UHGV virus genome: UHGV-0151084
From: a virus
Direction: 5' to 3' (one strand)
DNA: 49,280 nt
Both the position numbers and the translations under genes were made by a program. This document shows, one piece after another, positions 1-45,536 of this stretch (position 1 is the first letter of the stretch; every line of letters starts with the position of its first letter). Under the pieces are notes generated by a model that was not told the DNA's origin, made no database searches, and was given only the letters and a program-made list of their open reading frames with translations.

Positions 1-1391
1 CCTGTCTTTTGCACGGCGTTACCAGCCTTGTTTACCGTTTCCTGTAAACCGAGGTATTCGATAACGGCGGCAACGGTCGATTTCGCAAGAATATCCCGCC
101 CGACTTTTGTCAGAGTTGCCAGGCTGGCGACATCATTCCCCGTAAAATACGGAAACCTGTCTGCCGTAGTAGCAAGCCCGGCCAGCGCCGTCAGGGTGGC
201 ATCTTTCGGTTGCTTACCCGCAAGCGCGTTAGTCATGGTGGTCGCAAAATTCGGGTCGTTGCCCAACGCCGCAGCCAGCTCGTTCAGCGTATTCAGCGCG
301 TCAGGCGACGAGTCCACGAGGGCAGCGATCGCAGCCATAACATAAGCCGTGCTTGCGATCTGAGTATTGTTAGTACCTTTTGGCGCAGTTGGTGTTGTTG
401 GTGTTCCGGTCAGCGCCGGACTGTTCAGGGGCGCTTTCTTGTTCGTTTCATCCATTACCACCTTTACAGCTTTCGATGTCGCGGCCAGTGTTTCAGACGT
501 GCTGTTGGTGGCACTACTGAGCTGAGTTATTCCCCTTACAGTCAGTGAAGCTACAGGCACATTTGTTATCTGCTCCCACGAATGCGTGTGATTGGACGGA
601 GCCTTTCCGGCCGCAAGATCATACGCTGCCTTAACAGCCTTTGGTGTTGCTGCTAGCGTTTCAGACGTGCTGTTGGTGGCACTACTGAGCTGAACAATCC
701 CTTTTCGCGCTGTGGTAGCGTCCTGTGCGGTGTATTTGCCATTAGCCAGGTCATATGCTGCCTTAACAGCCTTAGGCGTCGCAGCAAGCGTTTCAGACGT
801 GCTATTGGTGGCGCTGCTAAGTTGAACAAAACCTTTTGAGGTTAAAGTTGCATCAGGATGATTACGTGATTGCTCATGTTTCACAATGGCTTGCTTAAGC
901 CGTTTTGCTGAAACAGCAAGGGAATCATCTGTACCTGCATCAATTTCTTGTTCATTAGCAAATCTTGCCACCCCAACAACAGTTTCGGTCGCGGGAGGAT
1001 TAATAAACTCAATATCACCAAATGTAATATTTTTAGTATCAAGAGTTTTAATTGCTATATCACTTGATATTAAAGCGATAGTAGATGATGCTTTATTTAT
1101 TATTGCTTGTTCTTGTGAGTATACAGCAAACAACGTACCCTTATTCGTATACAATCCTATTGTATGGACAACATACTCATCTTTACTATCATCCTTCGCT
1201 GTTACATGAATTGTATCAGGGGAAACAACTTTGCCACCTATTGTGGTAAGTCGTTTTATTTCGTTTGTTATATTTGTTTGTGAAGTTGACGTGACATAAT
1301 ATCTACTACCTAAACCAACAGAAACAATCTCAACTTTATTTGTTCCTGTTTTGTTGGCATTAACCAGCTCCTGACGCCCGGCGTCAGTCAT
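1..1391 (-). CDS. Tail fibre protein, constant N-terminal part (P2 gpH / Mu S-like); ATG at 1391, 3' end runs off the window start through a gix-like site
   Basis: Minus-strand translation from 1391 gives a continuous ORF of about 463 codons with three tandem ~33-aa repeats (G[IF]VQLSSATNSTSETLAATPKAVKAAYDLA) typical of phage tail-fibre shafts; sits after baseplate gene I; not in the ORF track because no stop lies inside the window. Confidence 0.8.
   Translation of the reverse strand, partial: MTDAGRQELVNANKTGTNKVEIVSVGLGSRYYVTSTSQTNITNEIKRLTTIGGKVVSPDTIHVTAKDDSKDEYVVHTIGLYTNKGTLFAVYSQEQAIINKASSTIALISSDIAIKTLDTKNITFGDIEFINPPATETVVGVARFANEQEIDAGTDDSLAVSAKRLKQAIVKHEQSRNHPDATLTSKGFVQLSSATNSTSETLAATPKAVKAAYDLANGKYTAQDATTARKGIVQLSSATNSTSETLAATPKAVKAAYDLAAGKAPSNHTHSWEQITNVPVASLTVRGITQLSSATNSTSETLAATSKAVKVVMDETNKKAPLNSPALTGTPTTPTAPKGTNNTQIASTAYVMAAIAALVDSSPDALNTLNELAAALGNDPNFATTMTNALAGKQPKDATLTALAGLATTADRFPYFTGNDVASLATLTKVGRDILAKSTVAAVIEYLGLQETVNKAGNAVQKT
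39..64. other. gix-like recombination site A (TTCCTGTAAACCGAGGTATTCGATAA) inside the 3' end of the tail-fibre constant region
   Basis: 26-bp site resembling Gin/Hin-family crossover sites as I recall them; positions 1-52 are the exact reverse complement of 46165-46216. Confidence 0.6.
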
Positions 1392-1442: not shown

Positions 1443-2024
1443 TTAGCACTCGCCAATTAATCGTACATAAGACACAGGCTGACAAGCACCAACAATACCG
1501 ACACCACCAGAAACATTGGCTGCTTGCGAAAATGTAAATAATGTTCTTGCCGACTTTGCGCTCTTGATACTTCTTAACGTATCTTCCAACATCTCTTTCG
1601 AAGGAACGGCACCATCAAAAGAGTTAATCGAAGCAACAATTGAGGCTGTATATGGTTCGCCAGGTGGTGATGTTTCAAACCATTCTGTTATGTTTACCTC
1701 TCCACCCAAGCTATTTACTACATCTTCAACCGCTGCCCTTGTACCCTTTATTCGCTTTGTTCGTATTATTGATTTAAAAACAGAACGCTTTAACGATACA
1801 GGCCAACTATCCCTCCATGTATCAGCATTCCATTGCCAAGCTAAATGATCGAGAACAACTGAGTCCAGGTTATCAACAACGCTATATATTTCTGTCTTAT
1901 ATATTAAATTGTTAATTGCTTGTAGTTCATCATCAATAGCTTTCGACATAGCTATCACGTTGGGATCTCTAGCTAAGTTAGGAGGTAAAACATCCAACAA
2001 GCTAACATTAAAGATATCAGCCAT
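1443..2024 (-). CDS. Baseplate assembly protein, P2 gpI-like
   Basis: 193 aa; motifs WRDSWPVSLKR and VNITEWFETSPPG resemble gpI-family tail proteins; position between J-like gene and tail fibre. Confidence 0.65.
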   Translation of the reverse strand: MADIFNVSLLDVLPPNLARDPNVIAMSKAIDDELQAINNLIYKTEIYSVVDNLDSVVLDHLAWQWNADTWRDSWPVSLKRSVFKSIIRTKRIKGTRAAVEDVVNSLGGEVNITEWFETSPPGEPYTASIVASINSFDGAVPSKEMLEDTLRSIKSAKSARTLFTFSQAANVSGGVGIVGACQPVSYVRLIGEC

Positions 2025-4541: not shown

Positions 4542-5543
4542 TTAATACCCATTAATTACTCTTCGGACATCAATCGAGGTGGTATAACCACTAGCCCCAA
4601 TTGAATGCACAGCTTTCGATATAAGATATTTTCCAGAAAATGAACCGAATCCGTCCAGATTTATAGTTACACCAGCTACCAATCTGGTGTCTCCAACCAA
4701 TACTAAAGATCCTGTATTTTGATATCTATTTTTAAGCCGCAAAGCAGCCTTTGCCTTACGTTTTGCTTCATCTAAATTAGCTACCAGTTTTCTTATCTTA
4801 AGATTCGACCCTTCTTCTACGGATGGATCTACCCAAGTATACGAAAGCGACTTTCTTTTTTTAGGTACGCGATATTTGCACGTGCAACTTTTATACAAAT
4901 CTGTAGATTGTGTGCTAAAGCTATATCTGATTATCTCATCAATACCTAACGTAAGCGTAGCGATAGGATCTTTTTGCTCAAACATCTCTTGAGCAAATAT
5001 TATTAATTGGCTATCAGTGACCTTTAACGACAACCCTTCATCCTGGCATAGTCGATGGAGAAATTTTAAATCGCTTTCCTCCATTTGATCTTCACGCGCA
5101 TAATATGGATTACTATCACCATCAATAAGAAACAACAGTTCAAGGTTAGCTAATTTAGCTATAGAGGTTGCTATATCTTTAAGAGTTGTTTTTTCCCATG
5201 CATTACTTTTTAAATCACGTCTAATGCCTGATGAAACAGGAACAGAAACAGCAGTCACCTCAACAACAGAAGGTGGTCCAGAGCAAGTTATGCCATCTAC
5301 CTGGAATTTCCCGCACTCAAGGACGATTTGATTTATAGGCTTAAAGCTCAAATCAATAAAATCACCCTTTTTAGGTGTCCAGTCTCCAGACCATTTCCCA
5401 TCATCATTTTTTAATATAATAGAAATATCATCGACCTGACCATCTTCATTATCTGTATAAGACATTGACAAAACATCAGGTGACATATGAGCGGTAATAT
5501 TTACATTCTGATATATAACATCAAAAAGCGTTTTACGTAACAC
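4542..5543 (-). CDS. Tail protein, gpD-like
   Basis: 333 aa ORF immediately downstream of tape measure and X-like genes, as in P2/Mu-like tail modules. Confidence 0.55.
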   Translation of the reverse strand: MLRKTLFDVIYQNVNITAHMSPDVLSMSYTDNEDGQVDDISIILKNDDGKWSGDWTPKKGDFIDLSFKPINQIVLECGKFQVDGITCSGPPSVVEVTAVSVPVSSGIRRDLKSNAWEKTTLKDIATSIAKLANLELLFLIDGDSNPYYAREDQMEESDLKFLHRLCQDEGLSLKVTDSQLIIFAQEMFEQKDPIATLTLGIDEIIRYSFSTQSTDLYKSCTCKYRVPKKRKSLSYTWVDPSVEEGSNLKIRKLVANLDEAKRKAKAALRLKNRYQNTGSLVLVGDTRLVAGVTINLDGFGSFSGKYLISKAVHSIGASGYTTSIDVRRVINGY

Positions 5544-5751
5544 TATTGCGTCTCCACGGAGGCAAATTGTTTACTGATATTGGCATAACCGGAGCATCAG
5601 GAACTTTAAGAATAATTCCCGCAGAAAAAAGCACCGTAAAGCGGTGCTCAGTATTAGCATCAATAAGAAGATAAGACAGGTACTCATTACCATACAACTT
5701 TAACGCGATACTATCCCATGAGTCCCCTTGAACCGTTCTATAATCATCCAA
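5533..5751 (-). CDS. Tail protein X-like (LysM-like)
   Basis: 72 aa; N-terminal YRTVQGDSWDSIALKLYG resembles LysM-type tail protein X. Confidence 0.55.
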   Translation of the reverse strand: MDDYRTVQGDSWDSIALKLYGNEYLSYLLIDANTEHRFTVLFSAGIILKVPDAPVMPISVNNLPPWRRNSVT

Positions 5752-8536
5752 AACTTAATCTCCGTTGTTGGAACATATGAGCACTCAATTTCTTCTCAAA
5801 ATCAGAATATCCCGCATCTAATGCTCTTTTAGCTGCCGCCTCAGTTTCCTTTGGTGAACCAGCCGGAAGATTGATTACAGGTGAATAGGTTATTCCACCA
5901 GTCACAGCATTAACGTTCTGGCGAGGTCCAGAAGTCCCGGCGGCAGATATCCCGTGAGGTGATAAATTTGATTGCCCGAACTTGGTTGCTATTGCATTCT
6001 GTAAGCTGTTATTCCTGCTAACACCTGATGCCAGAGTAGTCATTATTGCACCACCTGACTTTGTTAGCTGTGAGAATGGACCTTTTTTCGCGTCAGAGAA
6101 CGGTAAATACTCACGTACAGAAGAAAAAACGCCTTTCACTTCATTAATTAAAGCATTTGCTTTTGATTTTATCCCAGTGATTAACGTCTCAATTATTTTT
6201 GCGCCTGACTCACTCCAGTTTATTCCAGACAAATAAGCCGTTACAGATTGGAATGCTCTTATAAAGAGTCCAACTGGTGAAAAACGCATAAAAACAGATA
6301 CCAGTGTATCTATGATTTTCTTTCCTGTTTCGCTCCAGTTAATACCAGAAAGGTAATTTGTTGTAAGTTTAAATGCTTTAATTAAGAACGGAAGCGGAGA
6401 CATCCATTTAAAAGCACTAATTAATGTACTGTAAATTCTTACTCCTGCCGAACTCCAGTTTATGTTGGAAAGATAATCCCATGCTTTACCAAACATAGAT
6501 ATAATCCATCCATTGAGATCAAAGTTTAAGATAAAGTTTTTTATAGCTTCAAACGATTTAACTGTATATTCCTTAACAGAAGGCCAAACTCTGACAGCAT
6601 AATCTCTGATCTTATCCCAGTTCTGATAGAGCAATATTCCTGCGGCAACCAGCGCAGATATAGCCATCTGAATCCACCCGAAGGGTGTTAGCTTTGTCGC
6701 TACAGATAAAGCCAGCATAGCTACCCTACACGCTATAACCACACTTTTCATGGTTAGAAACGCACCTGCCGCCATCACAATCTGAGACACAAAATTGGGG
6801 TTGTTAGCTACAAATTCACTAATTTTTGTAATCAGCGGAACCAAAACACTAAGCGCGGCATTCAAAGCAGGTTGCAAGGCCTGACCAAAACTTAATGATG
6901 CATTGCTAGCCTGAATACGTAATTGTTTCAATCGCTCCGCATTGTCTTTCGTTATGTTGGCAAAATCGCGGTCAATAACAGCACTTCCAGCACCAAGAGA
7001 TGTTGCTTTGATTCTCTGGTATTCCTTCCAGTTTTGAATCATCGGACGAACAAAGTTCTGAACCTGCATATCGCCAAATAGCTCACCAAGTAACTTCTGA
7101 TCTCCGTTCTTAGTCATTTTCATGACAGAATGCATTGCAGCTTCGAATGGATTCTTCCCTTTTTTCTGCGCTGTTGTGACAATTTTATATAAATCTACAC
7201 CGAAATTTTTCTTTGCTTTTTTTAGGGTTTCAGGGGAAAGTATTTTCGCCAAAAAGTTGTTCATATTATTAGCAGCCTCATCCGAAGTTGCAGCACCTTT
7301 GCGAGCTATCTGCAAAGCTGCCCCCATCGTCGCGGCGGCTTCTTTACCTCCCATTTTTAATGCCTGGAACTGAGCACCAAGCACAGGAAGATTTTTGGCC
7401 ATATCTTTAAATTCAAAGTTTCCCTCTTTCCCTGCCTGAACCAGAATCCCCATTGCAGACTTCATTTGAGATGGATCAATCTTCAATGAGTCACTTAATG
7501 TAAATGATGCTTTCGAGACATCGAGGATATCAGAGCCAGTAGCTGTAGCTGTTCGCCCAATAGTTAGTAGATTCGCCTGAGCCTCTTTATAATCCTGCCC
7601 AGCAGCGACGAGAAAACCCTGAGCGGCCTGAATATCAGATGCAAACTGGTTGGTGGCCGTTCCGGTAACAAGCATCGCCTGCCCCATCGCCTGAACTTCT
7701 TCCGGCTTCATATCTGCCGTAAGACCAATCATTTTGTTTTCACGATTGAAATTTGCTGCATTGTTAGCAGCAGCAAATGCACCAGCCGCTACAGCACCAG
7801 TTTGTAATCCTGACCTTACAAGTTGACTCTTTGCCTCACCAAGATGCTCTCGCTTCAATTCACGCTGCCTTTCCAACGCGCGGTTTAACTCCTCCTGAGC
7901 ACGTTTTACTGCAAGAACATTTTTCCGTGCTTCAGCCAACGCATTTTTATAGCTGTTAATTTTATCAATACGTTGTTTTTCTAATGCCCGGTTAAGTTCC
8001 TCCTGCTGTTTTTTCACTTGCTGAACATTTGCTCTGGCTAAAGCCAAAGCCGTTCTGTAGCGGTTAACCTGCTCAACGCTACGGACCTGAGCCTCACGAT
8101 TACGATCAATGCTGGCTTTAAGCTCTTTCTCTCTTGAGGCCAAAGCTCTGGCAGATGTATCAGCTCCCTGATAGGCAGACTTTAAAGCGGCCAGTTCTTC
8201 ACGCTGAGAACGTAGTGATGCTCGTAAATTCGATGAATGTGTTTTTGCCTTCTCAAAGTCACGAAGCATCGCTCTGGTTGGATTGGCCGTGTTTTTTATT
8301 TGCTTCTGTAACTCTTCAACGCGAGCGGCAGCTTTATGATATTCGAGGGCAGTCTGTCCAACCTTTACTTTTACAGATTGTAGCTTTTGAATTTCCCCAT
8401 GTTCTTTCGTTAATCCAGCAAGCTCGGCATTTAATTTAGCAACAGCCTGATTAGCTGTAGTAAAACTTTTGGGGAGAGAGGCGGCAACTTTGCCGCCAAT
8501 TTCAAAAGCCAGCTTAAAGTTCTTATTGCTGGCCAT
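5744..8536 (-). CDS. Tail tape measure protein
   Basis: 930 aa; long coiled-coil N-terminal half (repeated QEELNRALE-type heptads), hydrophobic segments, repeated SGINWSE motifs; follows chaperone frameshift pair. Confidence 0.85.
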   Translation of the reverse strand: MASNKNFKLAFEIGGKVAASLPKSFTTANQAVAKLNAELAGLTKEHGEIQKLQSVKVKVGQTALEYHKAAARVEELQKQIKNTANPTRAMLRDFEKAKTHSSNLRASLRSQREELAALKSAYQGADTSARALASREKELKASIDRNREAQVRSVEQVNRYRTALALARANVQQVKKQQEELNRALEKQRIDKINSYKNALAEARKNVLAVKRAQEELNRALERQRELKREHLGEAKSQLVRSGLQTGAVAAGAFAAANNAANFNRENKMIGLTADMKPEEVQAMGQAMLVTGTATNQFASDIQAAQGFLVAAGQDYKEAQANLLTIGRTATATGSDILDVSKASFTLSDSLKIDPSQMKSAMGILVQAGKEGNFEFKDMAKNLPVLGAQFQALKMGGKEAAATMGAALQIARKGAATSDEAANNMNNFLAKILSPETLKKAKKNFGVDLYKIVTTAQKKGKNPFEAAMHSVMKMTKNGDQKLLGELFGDMQVQNFVRPMIQNWKEYQRIKATSLGAGSAVIDRDFANITKDNAERLKQLRIQASNASLSFGQALQPALNAALSVLVPLITKISEFVANNPNFVSQIVMAAGAFLTMKSVVIACRVAMLALSVATKLTPFGWIQMAISALVAAGILLYQNWDKIRDYAVRVWPSVKEYTVKSFEAIKNFILNFDLNGWIISMFGKAWDYLSNINWSSAGVRIYSTLISAFKWMSPLPFLIKAFKLTTNYLSGINWSETGKKIIDTLVSVFMRFSPVGLFIRAFQSVTAYLSGINWSESGAKIIETLITGIKSKANALINEVKGVFSSVREYLPFSDAKKGPFSQLTKSGGAIMTTLASGVSRNNSLQNAIATKFGQSNLSPHGISAAGTSGPRQNVNAVTGGITYSPVINLPAGSPKETEAAAKRALDAGYSDFEKKLSAHMFQQRRLSFG

Positions 8537-26016: not shown

Positions 26017-26092
26017 TGGTGGCCCCTACCGGATTTGAACCGATGACCGTGCGATTATGAGTCGCCTGCTCTAACCACTGAGCTAAGGGGCC
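26017..26092 (-). tRNA. tRNA with anticodon CAU (tRNA-Ile2 / Met-type), CCA encoded
   Basis: Minus-strand 76 nt GGCCCCTTAGCTCAGTGGTTAGAGCAGGCGACTCATAATCGC...GGGGCCACCA folds as cloverleaf; acceptor, D and anticodon arms match the enterobacterial tRNA-Ile2 pattern as I recall it. Confidence 0.85.
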
Positions 26093-35055: not shown

Positions 35056-35173
35056 ACCACGATATGTGGTATTAAAACCACATATCGTGAGTTTTTCAAT
35101 GGGCGAAACAAAAAATAACCTTCTATTTGTGGTCCACCTCTCGTCTTACCATGTGAAAACCACTAAATGTGGT
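35056..35173. promoter_or_regulatory. Immunity operator cluster (ACCAC-N5-GTGGT sites at 35056-35070, 35077-35091, 35159-35173)
   Basis: Three 15-bp inverted-repeat sites in the divergent Cro-like / CI-like intergenic region. Confidence 0.65.
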
Positions 35174-35210: not shown

Positions 35211-35867
35211 ATGAAAAGCAACGACGAGAACATCAAGAAAGAAATAGGTCTGCGCATTCAGACTCTACGGAAACAATCCGGCATGACTGCCGGAGATCTC
35301 CAGCAAGTCACTGGAATAGGCTTAAGCACCTTGCAGAACTATGAGGCCGGATTAAGACAACCATCTATACCTGCCATCAAGAAAATCGCGCACGCCCTGA
35401 AAGCATCAGCGCCTTATATCGCGTGCTTAACAGATAACCCGTTCCCACCCCAGAATACTAACGCTCCTGTTATTCCTGGGCTTGTAGCTATAAAAAATGA
35501 CATAGCATCGCACGCCGGAGAAAAGCCAGTGCTGGCGATAGAACAGGAGATTCTACGAAGCAAGAACATCAACCCATCGTCTCTGTCAGTTCTCCAGAGC
35601 AACGATGAGTTAATGTCACCAACAATATCCCCTGGCTCCCAAGTCCTGATTGATACAGACGATACAGAGATTCATGAGGGGATCTATGCCCTTGAAGACA
35701 GAAATGGCCTGGTTGTTTTGAGGCACTGTAGAGTCATACCGGGTGACAATGCTGTTATGCTGTCAACCGAAAGGGATGCTGAAATGAACACTAAGCATCT
35801 GAATAACGAGGAATTTAAGCGTTATAAAGTTCTTGGCCGCGTAGTTAGTGTTGTCAACTGGTTATGA
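35211..35867 (+). CDS. CI-like repressor (XRE HTH + S24 LexA-like peptidase domain)
   Basis: 218 aa; N-terminal HTH (LQQVTGIGLSTLQNYEAG), C-terminal S24-like region. Confidence 0.8.
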   Translation: MKSNDENIKKEIGLRIQTLRKQSGMTAGDLQQVTGIGLSTLQNYEAGLRQPSIPAIKKIAHALKASAPYIACLTDNPFPPQNTNAPVIPGLVAIKNDIASHAGEKPVLAIEQEILRSKNINPSSLSVLQSNDELMSPTISPGSQVLIDTDDTEIHEGIYALEDRNGLVVLRHCRVIPGDNAVMLSTERDAEMNTKHLNNEEFKRYKVLGRVVSVVNWL

Positions 35868-35909: not shown

Positions 35910-35924
35910 ACCACATTTTGTGGT
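35910..35924. promoter_or_regulatory. Additional operator site (ACCACATTTTGTGGT) downstream of CI-like gene
   Basis: Perfect-armed copy of the ACCAC-N5-GTGGT motif. Confidence 0.55.
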
Positions 35925-36460: not shown

Positions 36461-36484
36461 ACCAAACACATGGAGTCTCGACAA

Positions 36485-37138
36485 ATGACTATCTCTGTAG
36501 GTATTTTCAACGGAAAAGGCGGCGTAACCAAATCAACAATTGCCCGTGCTTTAGCAGTTGCTTATGCAAAGGCCGGCTGGAATGTATGCCTGATCGATAT
36601 GGATGTGCTTAACGGAACGGTAACGCGTTGGGTACAACGCAGAATGGCCAACAATATCGAACCTGCAATCGCGGCGCAGCCGTGCGGCACGCCATCACAA
36701 GTCCAGAAAATCATCGAATCAGAAGTATACGACCTGGTTATCGTCGATGGCGGTGCCTACGCATCTGAATCAGTACCGAAGCTCTCTGAATTTCTGGATA
36801 TGGTTATTTTGCCAACCAGATTCTCTACCGATGACCTGGAAACCACCGTTAACACAGCTCATGGCATCGTTAAAAAGGGTGTGCCAATCAAGAAAATTTG
36901 CATGGTGTTCTCAGGCGCGGCTGAAAACGAAGCCGACTACATTGAAGCCCAAGAGTACCTGGCTAATACGCCATACTTTGTTGTCGATAAGTACATTCCC
37001 CACAAGCCAGCTCTGAGCAAAGCTCAGGATAAGGGCTTAAGCCTCATTGAATGCTCATACGTTGCGCCACGCAAAAAGGCAGACGACGTTATTCAGGGGA
37101 TTATCAACCAGCTTGAGGCTCTGACTACTGCCGCGTAA
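36485..37138 (+). CDS. parA: ParA-family partition ATPase (small, type Ib-like)
   Basis: Deviant Walker A GKGGVTKST; start placed at ATG 36485 with GGAG RBS. Confidence 0.8.
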   Translation: MTISVGIFNGKGGVTKSTIARALAVAYAKAGWNVCLIDMDVLNGTVTRWVQRRMANNIEPAIAAQPCGTPSQVQKIIESEVYDLVIVDGGAYASESVPKLSEFLDMVILPTRFSTDDLETTVNTAHGIVKKGVPIKKICMVFSGAAENEADYIEAQEYLANTPYFVVDKYIPHKPALSKAQDKGLSLIECSYVAPRKKADDVIQGIINQLEALTTAA

Positions 37139-37181: not shown

Positions 37182-37430
37182 ATGGCCGCACCATCAAAAC
37201 CACCAAAGAAGAACAGCAAAGGCGTACCGCCATCGATCGAACAACCGCAGGTTTTCGACCCGACTGAAACGCCAGCCAGAACCAAATCAGGTGGGGCACA
37301 AATGGCGTTTAACGTCGACCCTGAATTTAAACGCGAGTACAAAACGTTCGCCAGCTCAATGGATATGTCATTGAAAGAAGTGCTGACAAAATCTTTTGAG
37401 TTACTCAAGGCTCAATACAACCAGAAGTAA
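37182..37430 (+). CDS. ParG-like ribbon-helix-helix partition protein
   Basis: 82 aa, basic disordered N-terminus and C-terminal RHH-like segment, directly after parA. Confidence 0.5.
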   Translation: MAAPSKPPKKNSKGVPPSIEQPQVFDPTETPARTKSGGAQMAFNVDPEFKREYKTFASSMDMSLKEVLTKSFELLKAQYNQK

Positions 37431-37459: not shown

Positions 37460-37642
37460 TTGGCCGTCGCGACACAACAAGGGGAATTTGTTATGTCCGA
37501 ACAACAATATACACGGTTACTGAAAACTCGTCTAACCGACCTCAAACGGCTGCAAGCTGGCCGCTTATTTGCCCTGCTATCCACCAGACCAGAATGGGTA
37601 CGTGAAGCAGTTCTGAAAGGCTTAATGCGCTCCAGCGTTTAA
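37460..37642 (+). CDS. Small hypothetical protein
   Basis: 60 aa ORF. Confidence 0.3.
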   Translation: MAVATQQGEFVMSEQQYTRLLKTRLTDLKRLQAGRLFALLSTRPEWVREAVLKGLMRSSV

Positions 37643-37652
37643 ATTCAACCAT

Positions 37653-37676
37653 AAAAAAGGCCCCCGAAGGGGCCTA
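37653..37676. terminator. Hairpin terminator (GGCCCC-CGAA-GGGGCC) with A/T runs
   Basis: Perfect 6-bp GC stem; T-run on minus strand. Confidence 0.55.
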
Positions 37677-38096
37677 ATCGCTACTTGCTGCTAATGTTTA
37701 TCGTCACATTCAGAGCGTTATCAGTAATCTTCCAACCCTCCCCATGTGGCGTAAACAAAGCTCCAGTAACAACGATAAAAATACACATACAGTATTTTTT
37801 CATTGTATGGCCCTTACAGGCCGTTTCACGGCATCCCCACCGACGAAAACAACGCGAGAGCAAGCACGGCTGCTTGTGCTTGCATGTACGGCAACAGGAA
37901 ATCCTCCCCTAAAGTCGGTGCCCGGGTGCGAATCGGCGGGAAGGTCCACAGGTATTTTACGATTATTTTAAGATTAGTAATAGGAAAGAAATTAAACGAA
38001 AAAAACAGTTTATTTTCACAAAATCAGTAACCTACCCACAATCTGTGAGTTTGCTGACACAACAAGAACCACAATTTTTTGATGTATAATAGTGGA

Positions 38097-38227
38097 CTAT
38101 TATTACCTTTTGAGTAAAATCAATTTGCTGCTTGTGCTTGCGTGGTTGTTTATACAACAACGTAATGCTGAAAGGACCGCGAATCCGATCAGCACGAAAG
38201 AACCGTCCTCAATAGGGCGGTTTTTTT
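38097..38227 (+). ncRNA. Candidate small RNA (extended -10 promoter TGTATAAT at 38083-38090 to terminator at 38199-38227)
   Basis: Promoter-like element followed about 110 nt later by hairpin AACCGUCCU/AGGGCGGUU plus U7; no ORF. Confidence 0.35.
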
Positions 38228-38291
38228 GTTTCTGCCTACCAATAAACCCACGCTATGTGGTTGTCTCTGTTAAAATCCCGCCGTATTGACA

Positions 38292-38396
38292 TGAATGCGC
38301 CATTGGTGGACACTTTCCGAGCCGTAGCAAAATCTACGGTCGGGATTAGCCTCCTGAATAACACGATGGCGCATACCGCGTTAGCGGTTTTTTTAT
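38292..38396 (+). ncRNA. Candidate structured RNA upstream of antirepressor operon
   Basis: TTGAC at 38286, internal hairpin CCGTAG/CTACGG, terminator ACCGC-GTTA-GCGGT + T7; shares GATTAGCCTC with the downstream leader. Confidence 0.3.
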
Positions 38397-38556
38397 GCGT
38401 AGAGCACTGTTACGCCCAAATTATGGTGGGTCGTACAGGGGCGGAGAAATCCGCGCCGGTTCGTCATTGTGTCCGGTAAGGCTAACCCTGTACGGCTCAC
38501 CACCATTTGATTAGCCTCGAATGGCGGTGATAGTTCCATATACTGGAGATATCACA

Positions 38557-38748
38557 ATGACAAACCTACCCCATGACTATTACGTCAACCTCGTAAAGAT
38601 CCTTCTCAAGAAAGCCTCATACGCCGATAAATTCCGCCTGGCTGAAATCATCGAGCGCGAAGCTATGCGCATCGCCAGCAACGATAACGCTGTTTCTGAC
38701 GCAAAAATCTCCCTCGTAACCAAAGTAGTTATGGGAGGTGCAAAATGA
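38557..38748 (+). CDS. Small protein translationally coupled to antirepressor
   Basis: ATG 38557 with GGAG RBS; stop overlaps antirepressor start (ATGA). Confidence 0.4.
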   Translation: MTNLPHDYYVNLVKILLKKASYADKFRLAEIIEREAMRIASNDNAVSDAKISLVTKVVMGGAK

Positions 38749-40013
38749 AAACGCTTCCGACCGTTAACACCCTACAGCCTATCCTGCATAACCAAATCCC
38801 TGTCATTACTACCGAGTTACTGGCACAGCTTTACGGCGTATCTCCTGTACGCATTCGACAAAATCATCATGAGAATAAGGAACGCTTCATTGAAGGTAAG
38901 CACTACTTCAAAATTGAAGGTAACGAACTTCGAGAGTTAAAGCACAAAGTGACTCAAGATAATGATGTGAAGAACAAAAACTCTTTAAGAGATTCAGTTA
39001 ATGACGCCCCCTCTAAAAGAGAGAGCGACGAGCACAGAGTAGTTTTAAACTACTCTGTTAACCACAAGGTAACTAAAAGTCACTCTGTGAAAATCGCCCG
39101 TAACGTTCGCTCCCTCATTCTCTGGACAGAACGCGGGGCTGCACGTCACGCCAAAATGCTTGAAACTAACCAAGCGTGGGATGTGTTCGAACGGCTGGAA
39201 GACTGCTACTTCAACCAGAACGCGCAAACGGCCGCGACCGTAACCGTCTCGCCAAACAATGCTCGTGAGGTTGTCGATACGCTCAACGCCAAACCGATGT
39301 TTTACATTAAGGTGTGCAATAACGAGCCACTCACAACCTCGGCCGATGTTGCCCAGGCATTCAGCACCACAAACAATTCCATCGTTATGGCCATCGATGC
39401 GTTACGCATTCCTCGCACAGCTGCGGCGCGTCATTTCTTTAAAGAGCAACGACCGTTGGAAGGAAGCGACCGCGAAATAACAATCTATCGCATGACAAAA
39501 GACGGATTTACCTTGCTCATGGAGAGCATCGACGGTCCAGGCGTAAAAGATATCAAGCTGGCCTACATTGAAGCCTTTAACGCTATCAGCAGCGTGTTAA
39601 AAACACAGTACGAGCGTGATCTGGCTAAACGACTGTACCAAGAAAAAACGATTATCCGCGCGGCAACAGAGCATAATCGGCTATTAACGGAACCGAACTA
39701 CCGCAAGACACTAATCAAAGAGTTTGACAAGGCGACGGAGAAAACTAAAGCGGCGCTAAGTCTGCCAGCAATGACTCAGGAAAATGTGATATCAGCCTTA
39801 CTTCTTGATCTGCTCAGGAACGCCAGAGCACTTATCAGCTTTGACGAGGACCTGAATCCTCAGCTCAAGCTACTACCACCGACAGGCAAAGTAGTCGACC
39901 AGGCTGATCACAACAGCATACTCAGCGTTCTGGATGCAAACCTGCCAGCCAGGACACTACAGGATCTGATAAAAACATGTGCTGATAAGCTGGCACAGAA
40001 AAGCAGACCATAA
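38745..40013 (+). CDS. Antirepressor (ORF6N-type N-terminal + Rha-type C-terminal domains)
   Basis: 422 aa; N-terminal IPVITTELLAQLYGVSPVRIRQNHHENKERFIEGKHYFKIEG; central TTSADVAQAF...TIYRMTKDGFTLLM resembles Rha. Confidence 0.7.
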   Translation: MKTLPTVNTLQPILHNQIPVITTELLAQLYGVSPVRIRQNHHENKERFIEGKHYFKIEGNELRELKHKVTQDNDVKNKNSLRDSVNDAPSKRESDEHRVVLNYSVNHKVTKSHSVKIARNVRSLILWTERGAARHAKMLETNQAWDVFERLEDCYFNQNAQTAATVTVSPNNAREVVDTLNAKPMFYIKVCNNEPLTTSADVAQAFSTTNNSIVMAIDALRIPRTAAARHFFKEQRPLEGSDREITIYRMTKDGFTLLMESIDGPGVKDIKLAYIEAFNAISSVLKTQYERDLAKRLYQEKTIIRAATEHNRLLTEPNYRKTLIKEFDKATEKTKAALSLPAMTQENVISALLLDLLRNARALISFDEDLNPQLKLLPPTGKVVDQADHNSILSVLDANLPARTLQDLIKTCADKLAQKSRP

Positions 40014-45348: not shown

Positions 45349-45536
45349 TTTCCATATCTGGTCGCTTTCCAACCAGACACCCACAATCATAACCACGTTA
45401 CGTGGTTTTAAGAGAACTCTACCACAACACTTTCGGTCATGCACGAAGTCTCTCACTGATCGAACGATAATCCACCAGTAAAAGGATCTAAATTGGATCT
45501 CGTTTTGCGAGCATCATACTACTGGCCTAACTCCAG

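Follow-up and report, generated by a model that had tools for sequence, protein, structure and literature searches.

The immI operon of phages P1 and P7, which comprises a1b1, the c4 antisense RNA, icd and ant, was reportedly described by Biere et al. in 1992. Further accounts of this operon are available (Citron and Schuster 1990; Rfam RF01695 and RF03163). In P1-type immI, the C4 RNA is excised by RNase P and repression leads to premature termination of ant transcription. Hfq binding by IsrK, the presence of a short and a read-through form, and activation of antirepressor translation by IsrK in trans are known only from the isrK-orf45-anrP locus of Salmonella Gifsy-1 (Hershko-Shalev et al. 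2016, PMC4825925); an analogy with satellite phage P4 was drawn by the same authors. Besides, a type I system, timPR (ryfA/timR), has been described in enterobacteria (Andresen et al. 2020; Eleftheraki and Holmqvist 2024), and TimR of Salmonella was found to bind the loop of timP stem-loop 2 (SL2) (PMC11228461).

Here, we analyzed the interval between the par genes and the antirepressor gene of virus genome UHGV-0151084 (the window, the whole stretch of 49,280 nt). We found that the 0.9 kb ahead of the antirepressor gene consists of two small-RNA systems, each of an already-known kind and annotated in no database record (Table 1). Very probably, the interval represents two independent, known modules, timPR and an immI-type switch, of a 47–49 kb E. 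coli phage-plasmid.

Table 1. Positions in the window of the two modules and their elements.
Feature	Position	Strand	Remarks
Left module: timP/TimR type I toxin-antitoxin pair	37653–38228		
timP (ryfA) toxin mRNA, ~297 nt	37653–37949	-	146-nt structured 5'UTR; Rfam RF00126
timP intrinsic terminator	37658–37675	-	GGCCCC-UUCG-GGGGCC then U6; terminator scan; 3' end of Rfam ryfA match
TimP-like toxin ORF, 40 aa + stop	37681–37803	-	MKKYCMCIFIVVTGALFTPHGEGWKITDNALNVTINISSK; NF040796
TimR target in timP 5'UTR SL2	37869–37886	-	mRNA nt 64–81; left copy of the direct repeat
Inferred timP promoter -10, TAAAAT	37954–37959	-	distance to Rfam model start
Supposed extended -10, TGTATAAT	38083–38090	+	perfect TATAAT, TG at -14/-13
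Probable TimR promoter, TGGACT-16 nt-TAAAAT	38093–38120	+	promoter scan
TimR-homologous antitoxin sRNA, ~102 nt	38127–38228	+	seed 38127–38144, terminator 38199–38227
Junction of the two modules	38233–38245	.	intergenic alignment, record annotations
Putative prophage repressor operator, palindrome CCACGCTATGTGG	38248–38260	.	27 nt upstream of isrK -35
Right module: P1 immI / Gifsy-1 isrK-type operon	38287–40013		promoter, IsrK-like RNA, C4, 63-codon ORF, antirepressor
isrK-C4-orf-ant operon promoter, TTGACA-17 nt-GACACT	38287–38315	+	+1 at Rfam isrK model start
IsrK-like sRNA, equivalent of c4-a1b1	38321–38394	+	RF01394
b1, GAUUAGCCUC	38344–38353	+	loop of IsrK hairpin 2
a1, ACACGAUGGCG	38361–38371	+	11 bp including 2 G-U pairs, read from sequence
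Weak IsrK terminator	38375–38394	+	terminator scan
C4 antisense RNA	38419–38507	+	RF01695
C4 loop a'	38458–38471	+	core GUCAUUGUG at 38463–38471
C4 segment b', AGGCUAA	38479–38485	+	single-stranded
b2 target, GAUUAGCCUC	38509–38518	+	leader hairpin loop in predicted fold
Shine-Dalgarno GGAG of 63-codon ORF	38546–38549	+	7 nt upstream of ATG 38557
a2 target, CACAAUGACAAACC	38553–38566	+	-4 to +10 of small-ORF start codon
63-codon leader ORF, positional equivalent of P1 icd	38557–38748	+	phrog_7886
Antirepressor, 422 aa, ORF6N + Rha	38745–40013	+	start overlaps leader-ORF stop (ATGA)

Results

General organization of the interval

The terminator scan detected 7 terminator-like sites where 1.6 ± 1.2 were expected, three Rfam families (ryfA, C4 and isrK) exceeded their gathering thresholds, and the fold z-scores were -6.1 for 38127–38228 and -5.1 for 38321–38600. 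Homology to described systems, architecture, complementarity and covariation were observed in both modules. The promoter scan reported no minus-strand promoter between 38400 and 38800, and the Rfam searches reported no P4-type RNA family for the window.

In relatives, the junction is occupied by an insert of 0.7–0.8 kb with an HTH regulator gene on the opposite strand. An RF00126 (ryfA) match was found in 10 of 16 related loci searched and was absent from the other 6, two of which had sRNA-Xcc1 in place of C4. Because the HTH gene can lie between the modules and ryfA can be missing, timPR and the C4 module appear to be independent of each other.

A palindrome of the form CCAC-N5-GTGG, located next to the junction, occurred 6 times (0.38 expected). 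Two exact copies were found in the divergent promoter region adjoining the XRE-S24 repressor gene (35211–35867), with a third copy, carrying one mismatch, beside them, and this palindrome is thus a putative operator of the repressor. The copy ahead of isrK has its centre near -67, where an operator for simple repression would not usually be expected.

The timP/TimR module

The minus-strand match to RF00126 covered the full model (1–296) at 143.5 bits, against a gathering score of 80. Chromosomal ryfA was not found by blastn and megablast with this query, and homology to chromosomal ryfA/timR was established via the covariance model and direct alignment to E. coli K-12. The first-pass annotation had described the interval as free of any convincing ORF, which was correct for the plus strand; for the minus strand it was wrong, because the timP mRNA carries a 40-codon TimP-like ORF (37803 to 37681). 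This ORF matched NCBIfam NF040796 (toxic_TimP) along its entire length (1–40 of 40, E = 7e-5), at 23 bits under the cut-off of 45. In the mRNA, its AUG is found at nt 147, a position shared with K-12 timP, and residues M-K-x-x-C-x-C-I...G-A-L-x-T...S-S-K are common to both proteins. The timP terminator adjoins the end of the par operon, and relatives have TAATAT or TATTAT at the position of the timP -10. Candidate pseudoknot partners CACCGAC/GUCGGUG (7 bp, mRNA nt 30–36 with 106–112) occupy the positions of K-12 CGCUGGC/GCCAGUG (see PMC11228461 for the pseudoknot).

The sRNA encoded divergently from timP aligned end to end with annotated K-12 timR (b4811, 100 nt), with which it shares the 5' end, the central hairpin and the terminator. 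It is predicted to fold at -42.4 kcal/mol, and a TimR homologue was found in every ryfA-carrying locus. Both the -35 and the -10 of the probable TimR promoter are conserved across all timP-carrying relatives and place the +1 at ~38127, which corresponds to the 5' GCUG of K-12 TimR. An extended -10 had been proposed nearby; the sequence TGTATAAT is indeed present there, but it is not the canonical TGnTATAAT, has no -35, and is replaced by CATAAT or nothing in relatives. Unlike TGGACT-16-TAAAAT, it is not conserved and is probably not the main promoter.

The 13-bp direct repeat TGCTTGTGCTTGC noticed previously is real, although its copies lie 1–2 nt away from where they had been placed, at 37871–37883 and 38129–38141. 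This repeat is the TimR seed together with its target in timP SL2. The exact repeat in which it lies is 15 nt long (18 nt at 94% identity, 37869–37886 and 38127–38144), and none of 500 dinucleotide shuffles gave one of this length (maximum 13). The TimR seed, nt 1–15, has its target at timP mRNA nt 67–81, and the predicted pairing extends over 15–18 nt (nt 64–81); seed and target covary in loci L001/L009 and L013. RNAduplex on whole RNAs was uninformative (-67.6 kcal/mol for TimR and timP, -68.0 on average for shuffles), and contiguous-pairing and repeat analyses were therefore used instead. Weak Rfam matches to RNAI (26.7 bits), Phe_leader, Atu_C8, PhrS and GcvB were well under their gathering scores and were rejected; they overlap the TimR and timP terminators. 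The hairpin and T-run of the terminator at 38199–38227 were confirmed. However, this terminator, TGTATAAT and the 13-bp repeat do not belong to antirepressor control as first thought, but fall within the separate timP/TimR module (37653–38232).

Several features of the module agree with enterobacterial timPR: a four-stem-loop 5'UTR with the AUG at the position given above, an ORF of 40–41 aa, a divergent sRNA of ~100 nt whose 5' seed pairs with SL2, and SL1-SL3 pseudoknot partners kept via compensatory changes. In contrast to the chromosomal systems, which occupy the sseA-sseB site, it resides on a phage-plasmid beside par genes, its DNA identity to them is too low for blastn, its TimP stays under the NCBIfam cut-off, and its two genes lie closer together (177 nt versus 399 nt apart).

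The isrK-C4-orf-ant operon

The TTGACA of the operon promoter is conserved in all relatives, and the -10 is TATATT in L010, L016, L017 and Gifsy-1; GACACT, the -10 in the window, is weak. Downstream, the match to RF01394 (isrK) scored 65.7 bits against a gathering score of 50, and that to RF03163 (c4-a1b1) scored 35.7 bits, under its gathering score of 46.7. According to the predicted fold and the terminator scan, the IsrK-like RNA contains two 5' hairpins and an intrinsic terminator; a second hairpin with T-run had been reported at 38375–38396 and was recovered.

C4 matched RF01695 over the full model (1–87) with 70.8 bits (gathering score 45). Its fold (-46.6 kcal/mol, z = -6.35 for 38419–38507) has a minimum-free-energy structure identical to the centroid, and the predicted shape is a long closing stem around two hairpins, with the a' loop and the b' segment single-stranded. 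The internal stems are 99.5–100% paired with compensatory changes, and the 3' end, CACCACCA, is conserved. The long hairpin pointed out earlier at 38425–38503 corresponds to inverted repeat I1 of our analysis. Similarly, the AGGCTAA/TTAGCCT complementarity was borne out, with AGGCTAA at 38479 and TTAGCCT at 38511 and also at 38346: b' is complementary to UUAGCCU both in IsrK (b1) and in the leader (b2), and b2 is an exact 10-nt repeat of b1. The helix a':a2 is inverted repeat I2 (14 nt, 93% complementary, 38553–38566 versus 38458–38471). In P1, b2 covers the icd ribosome-binding site, whereas here the start codon of the small ORF lies within a2. In L016 and L017, alignment by eye placed a2 upstream of the Shine-Dalgarno sequence and not on the AUG. 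An extra CACAATGAC at window position 2990 and extra copies of TTAGCCT were at chance level.

Folding and covariation had been suggested as checks, and, besides the C4 fold, the pairing sites were found to covary in relatives. Three-way covariation of alleles was judged on 15 related C4-carrying loci, 12 of which entered a formal pair count. Matching alleles were present at all pairing sites, with at least 4 b alleles and at least 3 a alleles, and five a/b combinations occurred across loci sharing the backbone of the window. Among the 12 loci, the b1:b' helix was 100% paired, with both sides changed in 4 of 7 pairs, and the a':a2 helix was 89.8% paired with compensatory changes. The observed values were reached by 0 of 500 shuffles, and slid controls were 33–44% paired. 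The b':b2 helix was omitted from this count because MAFFT had shifted four rows by one column (alignment A1); in the alignment of related loci, b' and b2 covary through 4 alleles. A pattern search of IMG/VR gave 114 unique C4-like loci, which may include chance hits. When each locus was probed with its own a' and b', Watson-Crick matches of 7 nt or more were found downstream in 67–73% of the loci and upstream (b1) in 66%, and probes swapped between loci found matches in 3–5%.

The leader ORF matched phrog_7886 with E = 2e-47, and the position of its Shine-Dalgarno sequence is conserved in relatives (GGAG, GGGA or GAGGG in the alignment). A 75-aa version starting at ATG 38521 was rejected because this ATG is missing in relatives. 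Substitutions in the ORF are biased to the third position (counts for the three codon positions of, for example, 8/4/29 and 18/7/37), and by this comparison it is under purifying selection. Its ATGA overlap with the antirepressor gene (38745–38748) is conserved in 8 of 9 loci examined, and the small ORF of L016 is truncated at 23 codons; translational coupling of the two genes is predicted from this overlap. Scanning the genome contigs with the 63-aa leader protein returned one locus only. The antirepressor contains ORF6N (5.9e-20) and Phage_pRha (4.5e-12) domains in Pfam and also matches PHROG anti-repressor families, and its N-terminus is 43% identical to Gifsy-1 AnrP (E = 1e-44).

Comparison of the operon with immI and other systems

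As in P1/P7 immI, a1/b1 lie upstream, C4 is part of the transcript of its own target, a2/b2 lie downstream, the small ORF overlaps the ant start via ATGA, and a/b specificities are allelic. The order a1b1, C4, small ORF, ATGA, ant was verified in the P1-like phage SJ46. In contrast, the ORF6N/Rha antirepressor showed no similarity to SJ46 Ant, nor the small ORF to SJ46 Icd, and the upstream element has a terminator of its own and is closer to isrK than to c4-a1b1. The locus would work like immI through proteins that appear not to be orthologous to P1-type Icd/Ant.

With Gifsy-1 the operon shares an IsrK homologue with a terminator and, presumably in our case, read-through, a C4 homologue between isrK and anrP (STnc1160; 69 bits in Rfam), and a homologous antirepressor. 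The Gifsy-1 b allele, TACGCC, is also the b allele of several relatives, and the published compensatory mutants G28A/C162U and G31A/C159U (PMC4825925) map exactly onto b1:b' pairs. The two loci differ in that anrP directly follows C4 in Gifsy-1, where the C4 region itself was proposed to contain a 45-codon ORF, whereas here a separate conserved 63-codon ORF follows C4; moreover, Gifsy-1 is an integrated lambdoid phage and the present element a plasmid prophage. Satellite phage P4 (CI RNA, seqA, seqC) is similar in that a hairpin RNA processed from the leader pairs with repeated sites upstream and downstream, but CI acts on replication genes, whose transcription it ends prematurely, and the system does not involve an antirepressor.

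Control of the antirepressor by small antisense RNAs as in P1 and P22 had been proposed for the whole interval. The P1 comparison holds for the right-hand third (C4, RF01695), and about two thirds of the interval is unrelated to it. P22 sar/ant resembles the predicted switch in that a small RNA blocks antirepressor translation; however, the analogy fails because sar is made from the opposite strand, across the ant ribosome-binding site, and is thus truly cis-antisense, whereas the regulator here is encoded on the strand of its target, ahead of it in the same transcript, and pairs via two short loop sequences.

Discussion

Proposed function of timPR

From the features above, we infer transcript ends, RNase P processing, terminator read-through, direction of regulation, toxin activity and biological role as follows. 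The minus strand would give a structured timP mRNA of ~297 nt encoding a 40-aa membrane toxin, and the divergent TGGACT-16 nt-TAAAAT promoter would give TimR (~100 nt). The TimR 5' seed is predicted to pair over 18 bp with SL2 of the timP 5'UTR, which should break the SL1-SL3 pseudoknot required for timP translation, as in Salmonella. Since the module lies directly 3' of the par genes, timPR is most likely a stability or addiction device of the plasmid prophage. A functional model for such a role is hok/sok of plasmid R1, a plasmid type I system for post-segregational killing, although its toxin and RNAs are unrelated and hok, unlike timP, needs mRNA processing and the mok leader ORF (PMC11228461).

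We consider it rather unlikely, yet worth weighing, that timPR acts instead in phage defence (abortive infection), in superinfection exclusion or in a non-toxic membrane role. Deletion of timR in Salmonella resulted in TimP synthesis with neither a growth defect nor a clear phenotype (PMC7667032), and a link between type I toxins and phage exclusion is cited in PMC13000454. The context of the module, directly after parA and its partner and restricted to non-mobilizable plasmid prophages, nevertheless suggests maintenance.

Proposed function of the IsrK-C4 switch

In the right module, the TTGACA-17 nt-GACACT promoter, beside the putative repressor operator, would start isrK-C4-orf-ant transcription. 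The majority of transcripts should end at the weak terminator and yield a 74-nt IsrK-like RNA, and read-through transcripts would contain the C4 RNA, the leader, the 63-codon ORF and the antirepressor gene coupled to it via ATGA. C4 is probably excised from this precursor, as in P1, with an expected size of 77–89 nt. Pairing of its loop a' with a2, across the start codon, and of its segment b' with b2, in the leader hairpin loop, would then block translation of the small ORF and hence of the antirepressor; transcription of ant is probably stopped as well, again as in P1. Since IsrK carries what may be decoy copies (a1/b1) of both target sites, it would compete for C4, so that excess IsrK would de-repress ant. 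De-repression of the antirepressor by excess IsrK has been shown experimentally for Gifsy-1 (PMC4825925). The decoy role rests on these Gifsy-1 experiments, which their authors read as cis/trans refolding of the 'orf45' mRNA.

Improbable, in our estimate, is the alternative that the IsrK-like RNA acts mainly in trans, through Hfq, on host or other phage genes and that its a1/b1 sites are incidental, or that a1/b1 only fold the precursor in cis, and that IsrK is not a C4 decoy. The isrK Rfam family is described as an Hfq-binding RNA, and in Gifsy-1 IsrK has been documented to pair in cis with sequence downstream of it ('structure A'; PMC4825925). However, a1 and b1 follow the C4 alleles perfectly, which argues that pairing with C4 is under selection, and trans-expressed IsrK raises Gifsy-1 anrP translation more than 100-fold. 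This alternative and the decoy explanation are not mutually exclusive.

Very unlikely is the explanation that the RNA genes are inert relics, that is, recognizable homologues which no longer regulate anything in this element. Expression of the modules is predicted from sequence, the -10 of the isrK promoter is weak as noted above, and the ant gene is disrupted in the relative pEC488-4. Against this stand the coordinated three-way switches of a', a1, a2 and of b', b1, b2 among near-identical backbones, the switches of TimR seed and timP target, and the purifying selection on the small ORF; the coordinated allele and seed/target switches require ongoing selection for pairing.

Extremely unlikely is the original view of the whole 880 bp as one non-coding leader or regulatory region of the antirepressor operon, in which TGTATAAT starts attenuated transcripts of 100–130 nt and the 13-bp repeat takes part in ant control. 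All listed elements do lie upstream of ant, those on the plus strand are co-directional with it, and the TimR-like RNA is co-oriented with the operon. However, the left 580 bp form a complete homologue of the chromosomal timP/TimR module, the repeat has its complement in the minus-strand mRNA and not in the ant leader, relatives have an opposite-strand gene between the modules or no ryfA at all, and TGTATAAT is not conserved. The chance that a plus-strand 74-codon ORF (38255–38479) encodes a real regulator is negligible despite PHROG 'transcriptional regulator' matches (for example, phrog_821, E = 4.8e-13), as this ORF, which we rejected, coincides exactly with isrK and C4, varies with RNA pairing rather than codons, and in close relatives is either missing, truncated or frame-shifted, and the matches are best explained by family members with mis-called N-terminal extensions running through conserved RNA genes.

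Implications

Current concepts are unchanged by these findings. In about 60 sequenced E. coli plasmids and in three Yersinia phage genomes of this family, the 1.1-kb stretch appears as 'hypothetical' or empty, whereas it holds four RNA genes and a toxin gene (function predicted); one of these plasmids is carried by E. coli ATCC 25922. The locus connects the literature on Gifsy-1 IsrK with that on P1 c4, and, with C4 specificity alleles that vary naturally between near-identical backbones, offers a test system for the diversification of antisense immunity specificities. In addition, timPR, otherwise a chromosomal system, is found here on a mobile element, and its role in plasmid maintenance thereby becomes testable.

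Competition among three RNAs, a two-digit heteroimmunity barcode, timPR addiction and a reinterpretation of Gifsy-1 'orf45' can be combined into one joint reading, which we put forward tentatively and with less than even confidence. If it is true, IsrK (a1/b1) would be a dedicated C4 decoy against the leader sites a2/b2 that sets the antirepressor, with the IsrK:C4 ratio fixed through read-through of the weak terminator. The independently assorting a and b alleles would then constitute the two-digit barcode, and the Gifsy-1 'orf45' model would need rereading as titration of C4 RNA by IsrK. Under the same reading, the left module would be the first type I timPR module working as an addiction system of a plasmid prophage.

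Genomic context of the region

The window represents a phage-plasmid of the 47–49 kb size class. In its structural half, it shares 99% identity with Yersinia phages vB_YpM_39, 41 and 44 and ~98% with E. coli myovirus contigs. The studied region matched 60 plasmid records, nearly all from Escherichia and most of 47–49 kb, all of which were typed as non-mobilizable; in complete E. coli genomes, it occurred at 76 plasmid places versus 3 chromosomal places. Gene order is XRE-S24 repressor, ParA, an 82-aa protein, a 49-aa ORF, a 0.9-kb “gap”, a 63-aa ORF and a 422-aa ORF6N/Rha antirepressor. Pfam gave no match for the 82-aa or the 49-aa protein, one of which is presumably the ParA partner (centromere-binding protein). 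In GenBank and RefSeq records of the region, the gap carries no annotation. A type II toxin-antitoxin pair (HigB2 or RelE/ParE toxin plus HTH antitoxin) was seen a few kb downstream in two relatives (L001, 9268-9615; L002, 8445-9091), and the phage-plasmid family therefore has at least two toxin-antitoxin systems. The cargo of the C4-controlled operon is variable: where the window has one antirepressor gene, L002 (pEC488-4, a plasmid of 98% identity) has two pieces at 5147-6346, an ORF6N pseudogene and a distinct gene of the Rha family.

Two RNA modules occupy the gap

Three Rfam families were found in the interval, together with a c4-a1b1 match at 38308-38360 that overlaps isrK (relaxed thresholds; 35.7 bits, below the gathering score).

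Features of the window
Feature	Coordinates	Strand	Evidence or remark
tRNA gene	26020-26092	-	Rfam tRNA, 67 bits; anticodon loop CUCAUAA, reads as CAU
XRE-S24 repressor gene	35211-35867		
ParA gene	36470-37138		
82-aa protein	37182-37430	+	phrog_6024; after parA
49-aa ORF	37493-37642	+	weak match to phrog_22022; after parA
ryfA	37653-37949	-	Rfam, 143.5 bits
TimP-like ORF, 40 codons	37803..37681	-	end-to-end match to NCBIfam toxic_TimP, below cut-off
isrK	38321-38394		Rfam, 65.7 bits
b1 UUAGCCU	38346		loop of IsrK hairpin 2
C4 antisense RNA	38419-38507		Rfam, 70.8 bits
b2 UUAGCCU	38511		loop of leader hairpin
CCAC-N5-GTGG palindrome sites	35057-35069, 35078-35090, 35160-35172, 35911-35923, 38248-38260, 45393-45405, 1234-1246		

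The first-pass annotation had described this interval as non-coding and rich in structure, and every sequence string it named is present in the window. The features it listed are not due to chance: seven terminator-like sites were found versus 1.6 expected, a 15-nt repeat was reached in 0 of 500 shuffles, and fold z-scores across the region were -5 to -6.4. Its 13-mer direct repeat is real but lies at 37871-37883 and 38129-38141, as the core of an 18-nt repeat (37869-37886 and 38127-38144; 15 nt exact). The absence of a convincing ORF did not hold, the minus strand having one, and the extended -10 proposed at TGTATAAT is non-canonical, lacks a -35 and is not conserved in relatives.

A timPR module on the plasmid prophage

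The minus-strand family, ryfA, is the timP toxin mRNA (PMC7667032). The timP AUG is at mRNA nt 147, the same position as in E. coli K-12, and the SL1-SL3 pseudoknot partners show compensatory differences from K-12. According to the literature, a divergent sRNA lies beside every timP; such a TimR-type sRNA ends in a terminator, and its 5' end pairs with SL2 of the timP 5'UTR, >60 nt upstream of the RBS. We found that 38127-38228 aligns over its full length with annotated K-12 timR, from a common 5' GCUG through the same central hairpin GCUG(G)AAAGG-CCGCGAA-CAGC to a common terminator. The probable promoter, a conserved TGGACT-16-TAAAAT (38093-38120), has its +1 at the 5' end homologous to that of TimR. 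In the “direct repeat”, the right copy is the first 15–18 nt of the TimR-like sRNA and the left copy corresponds on the minus strand to timP mRNA nt 64-81, in SL2; the repeat is therefore sRNA-target complementarity. Relatives carry matching changes in both copies (GCTGTTTGTGC in L001 and L009, GCTTACTTGTGC.TACGAGT in L013). In K-12 itself (L020, ~1666-1785, minus strand), a second TimR-like sequence with the same central hairpin and terminator, unannotated in the record, lies between annotated timR and ryfA.

By tblastn, this TimP occurred in 58 non-mobilizable plasmids of the same family, annotated in none. It also occurred in five plasmids from Yersinia or Serratia, all conjugative, of which one had timP annotated. 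Among 50,697 phage records, it was present only in the three Yersinia phage records. The module would be expected to act as in Salmonella (PMC11228461, PMC13000454), and from its par-adjacent position we infer an addiction role.

The isrK-C4-orf63-ant operon

The isrK promoter consists of a conserved TTGACA (38287) and a weak -10, and its +1 falls where the Rfam isrK model begins; the -10 reads TATATT in three relatives and in Gifsy-1. C4 is predicted to fold into a 17-bp closing stem and two hairpins. Its single-stranded b' segment, AGGCUAA (38479), is complementary to UUAGCCU at two places, b1 in IsrK and b2 in the downstream leader, which form an exact 10-nt repeat. The a' loop (38458-38471) is complementary to 38553-38566, across the AUG of the 63-codon ORF (14 nt, one mismatch), and also pairs with ACACGAUGGCG in IsrK (38361-38371) when two G-U pairs are allowed. 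The small gene reported to be coupled to the antirepressor is present, with its true start at ATG 38557. Substitutions biased to third codon positions and a match to phrog_7886 mark this ORF as a genuine gene. In 8 of 9 loci examined, its stop codon and the ant start codon share an ATGA; in L016 the ORF is truncated. A plus-strand 74-codon ORF over isrK and C4 (38255-38479), which matches the PHROG “transcriptional regulator” families phrog_821, 3960, 995 and 6928, was rejected as spurious, being frame-broken in close relatives. Those families probably include members whose N-terminal extensions were mis-called through conserved RNA genes.

IsrK and C4 precede the 63-codon ORF at every locus found with the 63-aa protein, except L014 and L015, and the alleles of the a and b sites change in concert among relatives.

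C4 pairing-site alleles (a and b columns numbered separately; four b alleles, three a alleles)
Allele	b'	b1 and b2	a'	a2
1	AAGGCTAAC	GATTAGCCTC	GTCATTGTG	CACAATGAC
2	TACGCCAAC	GATTGGCGTC	TCATGATGA	TCATCATGAC
3	AGTTCCAAC	GATTGGAACC	CCATGGTGA	TCACCATGAC
4	AGTTCGAAC	GATTCGAACC	none seen	none seen

In a formal pair count, the b1:b' helix was 100% paired, with both sides changed in 4 of 7 pairs, the a':a2 helix 89.8% and the C4 stems 99.5–100%; these values were reached by 0 of 500 shuffles, and slid controls were 33–44% paired. The pairing property was family-wide among 114 unique pattern-matched C4-like IMG/VR loci, some of which may fit the search pattern by chance. In L016 and L017, the complement of the a' loop (UGGUUAC / UUGGUUUGU) is GUAACCA / CAAACCA, in the leader upstream of 2501; by eye in the alignment, this a2 site is directly 5' of the Shine-Dalgarno and not across the AUG, and a2 placement relative to the start therefore differs between alleles. 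In the two exceptional loci, sRNA-Xcc1 (RF02221; L014 2379-2464, L015 2376-2460) replaces isrK and C4 before the same 63-aa ORF and antirepressor cassette. Nine nucleotides of the L014 copy are complementary to a stretch covering the Shine-Dalgarno of the small ORF (CUCUUUUGC/GCAAAAGAG), which suggests a role for sRNA-Xcc1 analogous to that of C4.

Comparison with known systems

C4 and c4-a1b1 motifs have already been defined (Weinberg et al. 2010), and the cassette is common, with matches of 60–80% identity in 304 phage records, including many Stx phages. P1-like phage SJ46 has the same order as the window (a1b1, C4, icd, then ATGA and ant); the window's small ORF product and antirepressor have no relationship to the SJ46 Icd and Ant proteins. 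In Gifsy-1, the order is isrK, C4 homologue (Rfam, 69 bits) and anrP, and the N-terminus of the window antirepressor shows 43% identity to AnrP; the region known there as “orf45/STnc1160” (L018 1796-2040) is the C4 antisense RNA. Base pairs G28-C162 and G31-C159 of Gifsy-1 were proven by compensatory mutation, and IsrK in trans raised anrP translation >100-fold, the authors' own comparison being with P4 CI/seqA and not with P1 c4 (PMC4825925). On the sequence, these residues (published mutants G28A/C162U and G31A/C159U) are b1:b' pairs.

Proposed mechanism and a candidate operator

Homology, architecture, complementarity and the covariation of all pairing partners are direct observations. By analogy with P1 and Gifsy-1, the weak IsrK terminator would end most transcripts, C4 would be made from read-through RNA, and the a1/b1 sites of IsrK would compete for it. 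A kissing interaction with b2, together with pairing at a2, could let C4 occlude the orf63 start region, which would prevent coupled ant translation and probably cause polarity too.

The isrK -35 is preceded, at a distance of 27 nt, by a CCAC-N5-GTGG palindrome. Six exact copies are present in the window versus 0.38 expected, often within AAAACCAC...GTGGT, and copies cluster in the divergent promoter region adjoining the XRE-S24 repressor gene. The palindrome is likely an operator of the prophage repressor, and its number and position suggest that this repressor also controls the isrK-ant operon. Control of the operon by C1 at Op51 in P1 is a parallel.

Independence of the modules and significance

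Five relatives have an insertion precisely at the junction of the two modules, after the TimR terminator and before the palindrome: a 573-nt gene for an HTH regulator, on the opposite strand. This gene (190 aa; L001 4603-5175 and L003 2103-2675, both minus strand; corresponding to window 38233-38245) is divergent from the isrK-ant operon, and its carriers include Yersinia phage vB_YpM_41 and an E. coli ATCC 25922 plasmid. Its product, absent from the window, may be a dedicated regulator. Moreover, ryfA was missing in 6 of 16 related loci searched, two of which have sRNA-Xcc1 instead of C4. Antisense control of the antirepressor, as first proposed for the whole interval, applies to C4, and timPR is a separate module; the observation was real, and its central idea holds where C4 is concerned. 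All that was found falls within described families, of which this locus is an unannotated member. Its interest is modest: it offers a natural allele series of C4 specificities, bridges the IsrK and c4 literatures, and locates a timPR system on a plasmid prophage.
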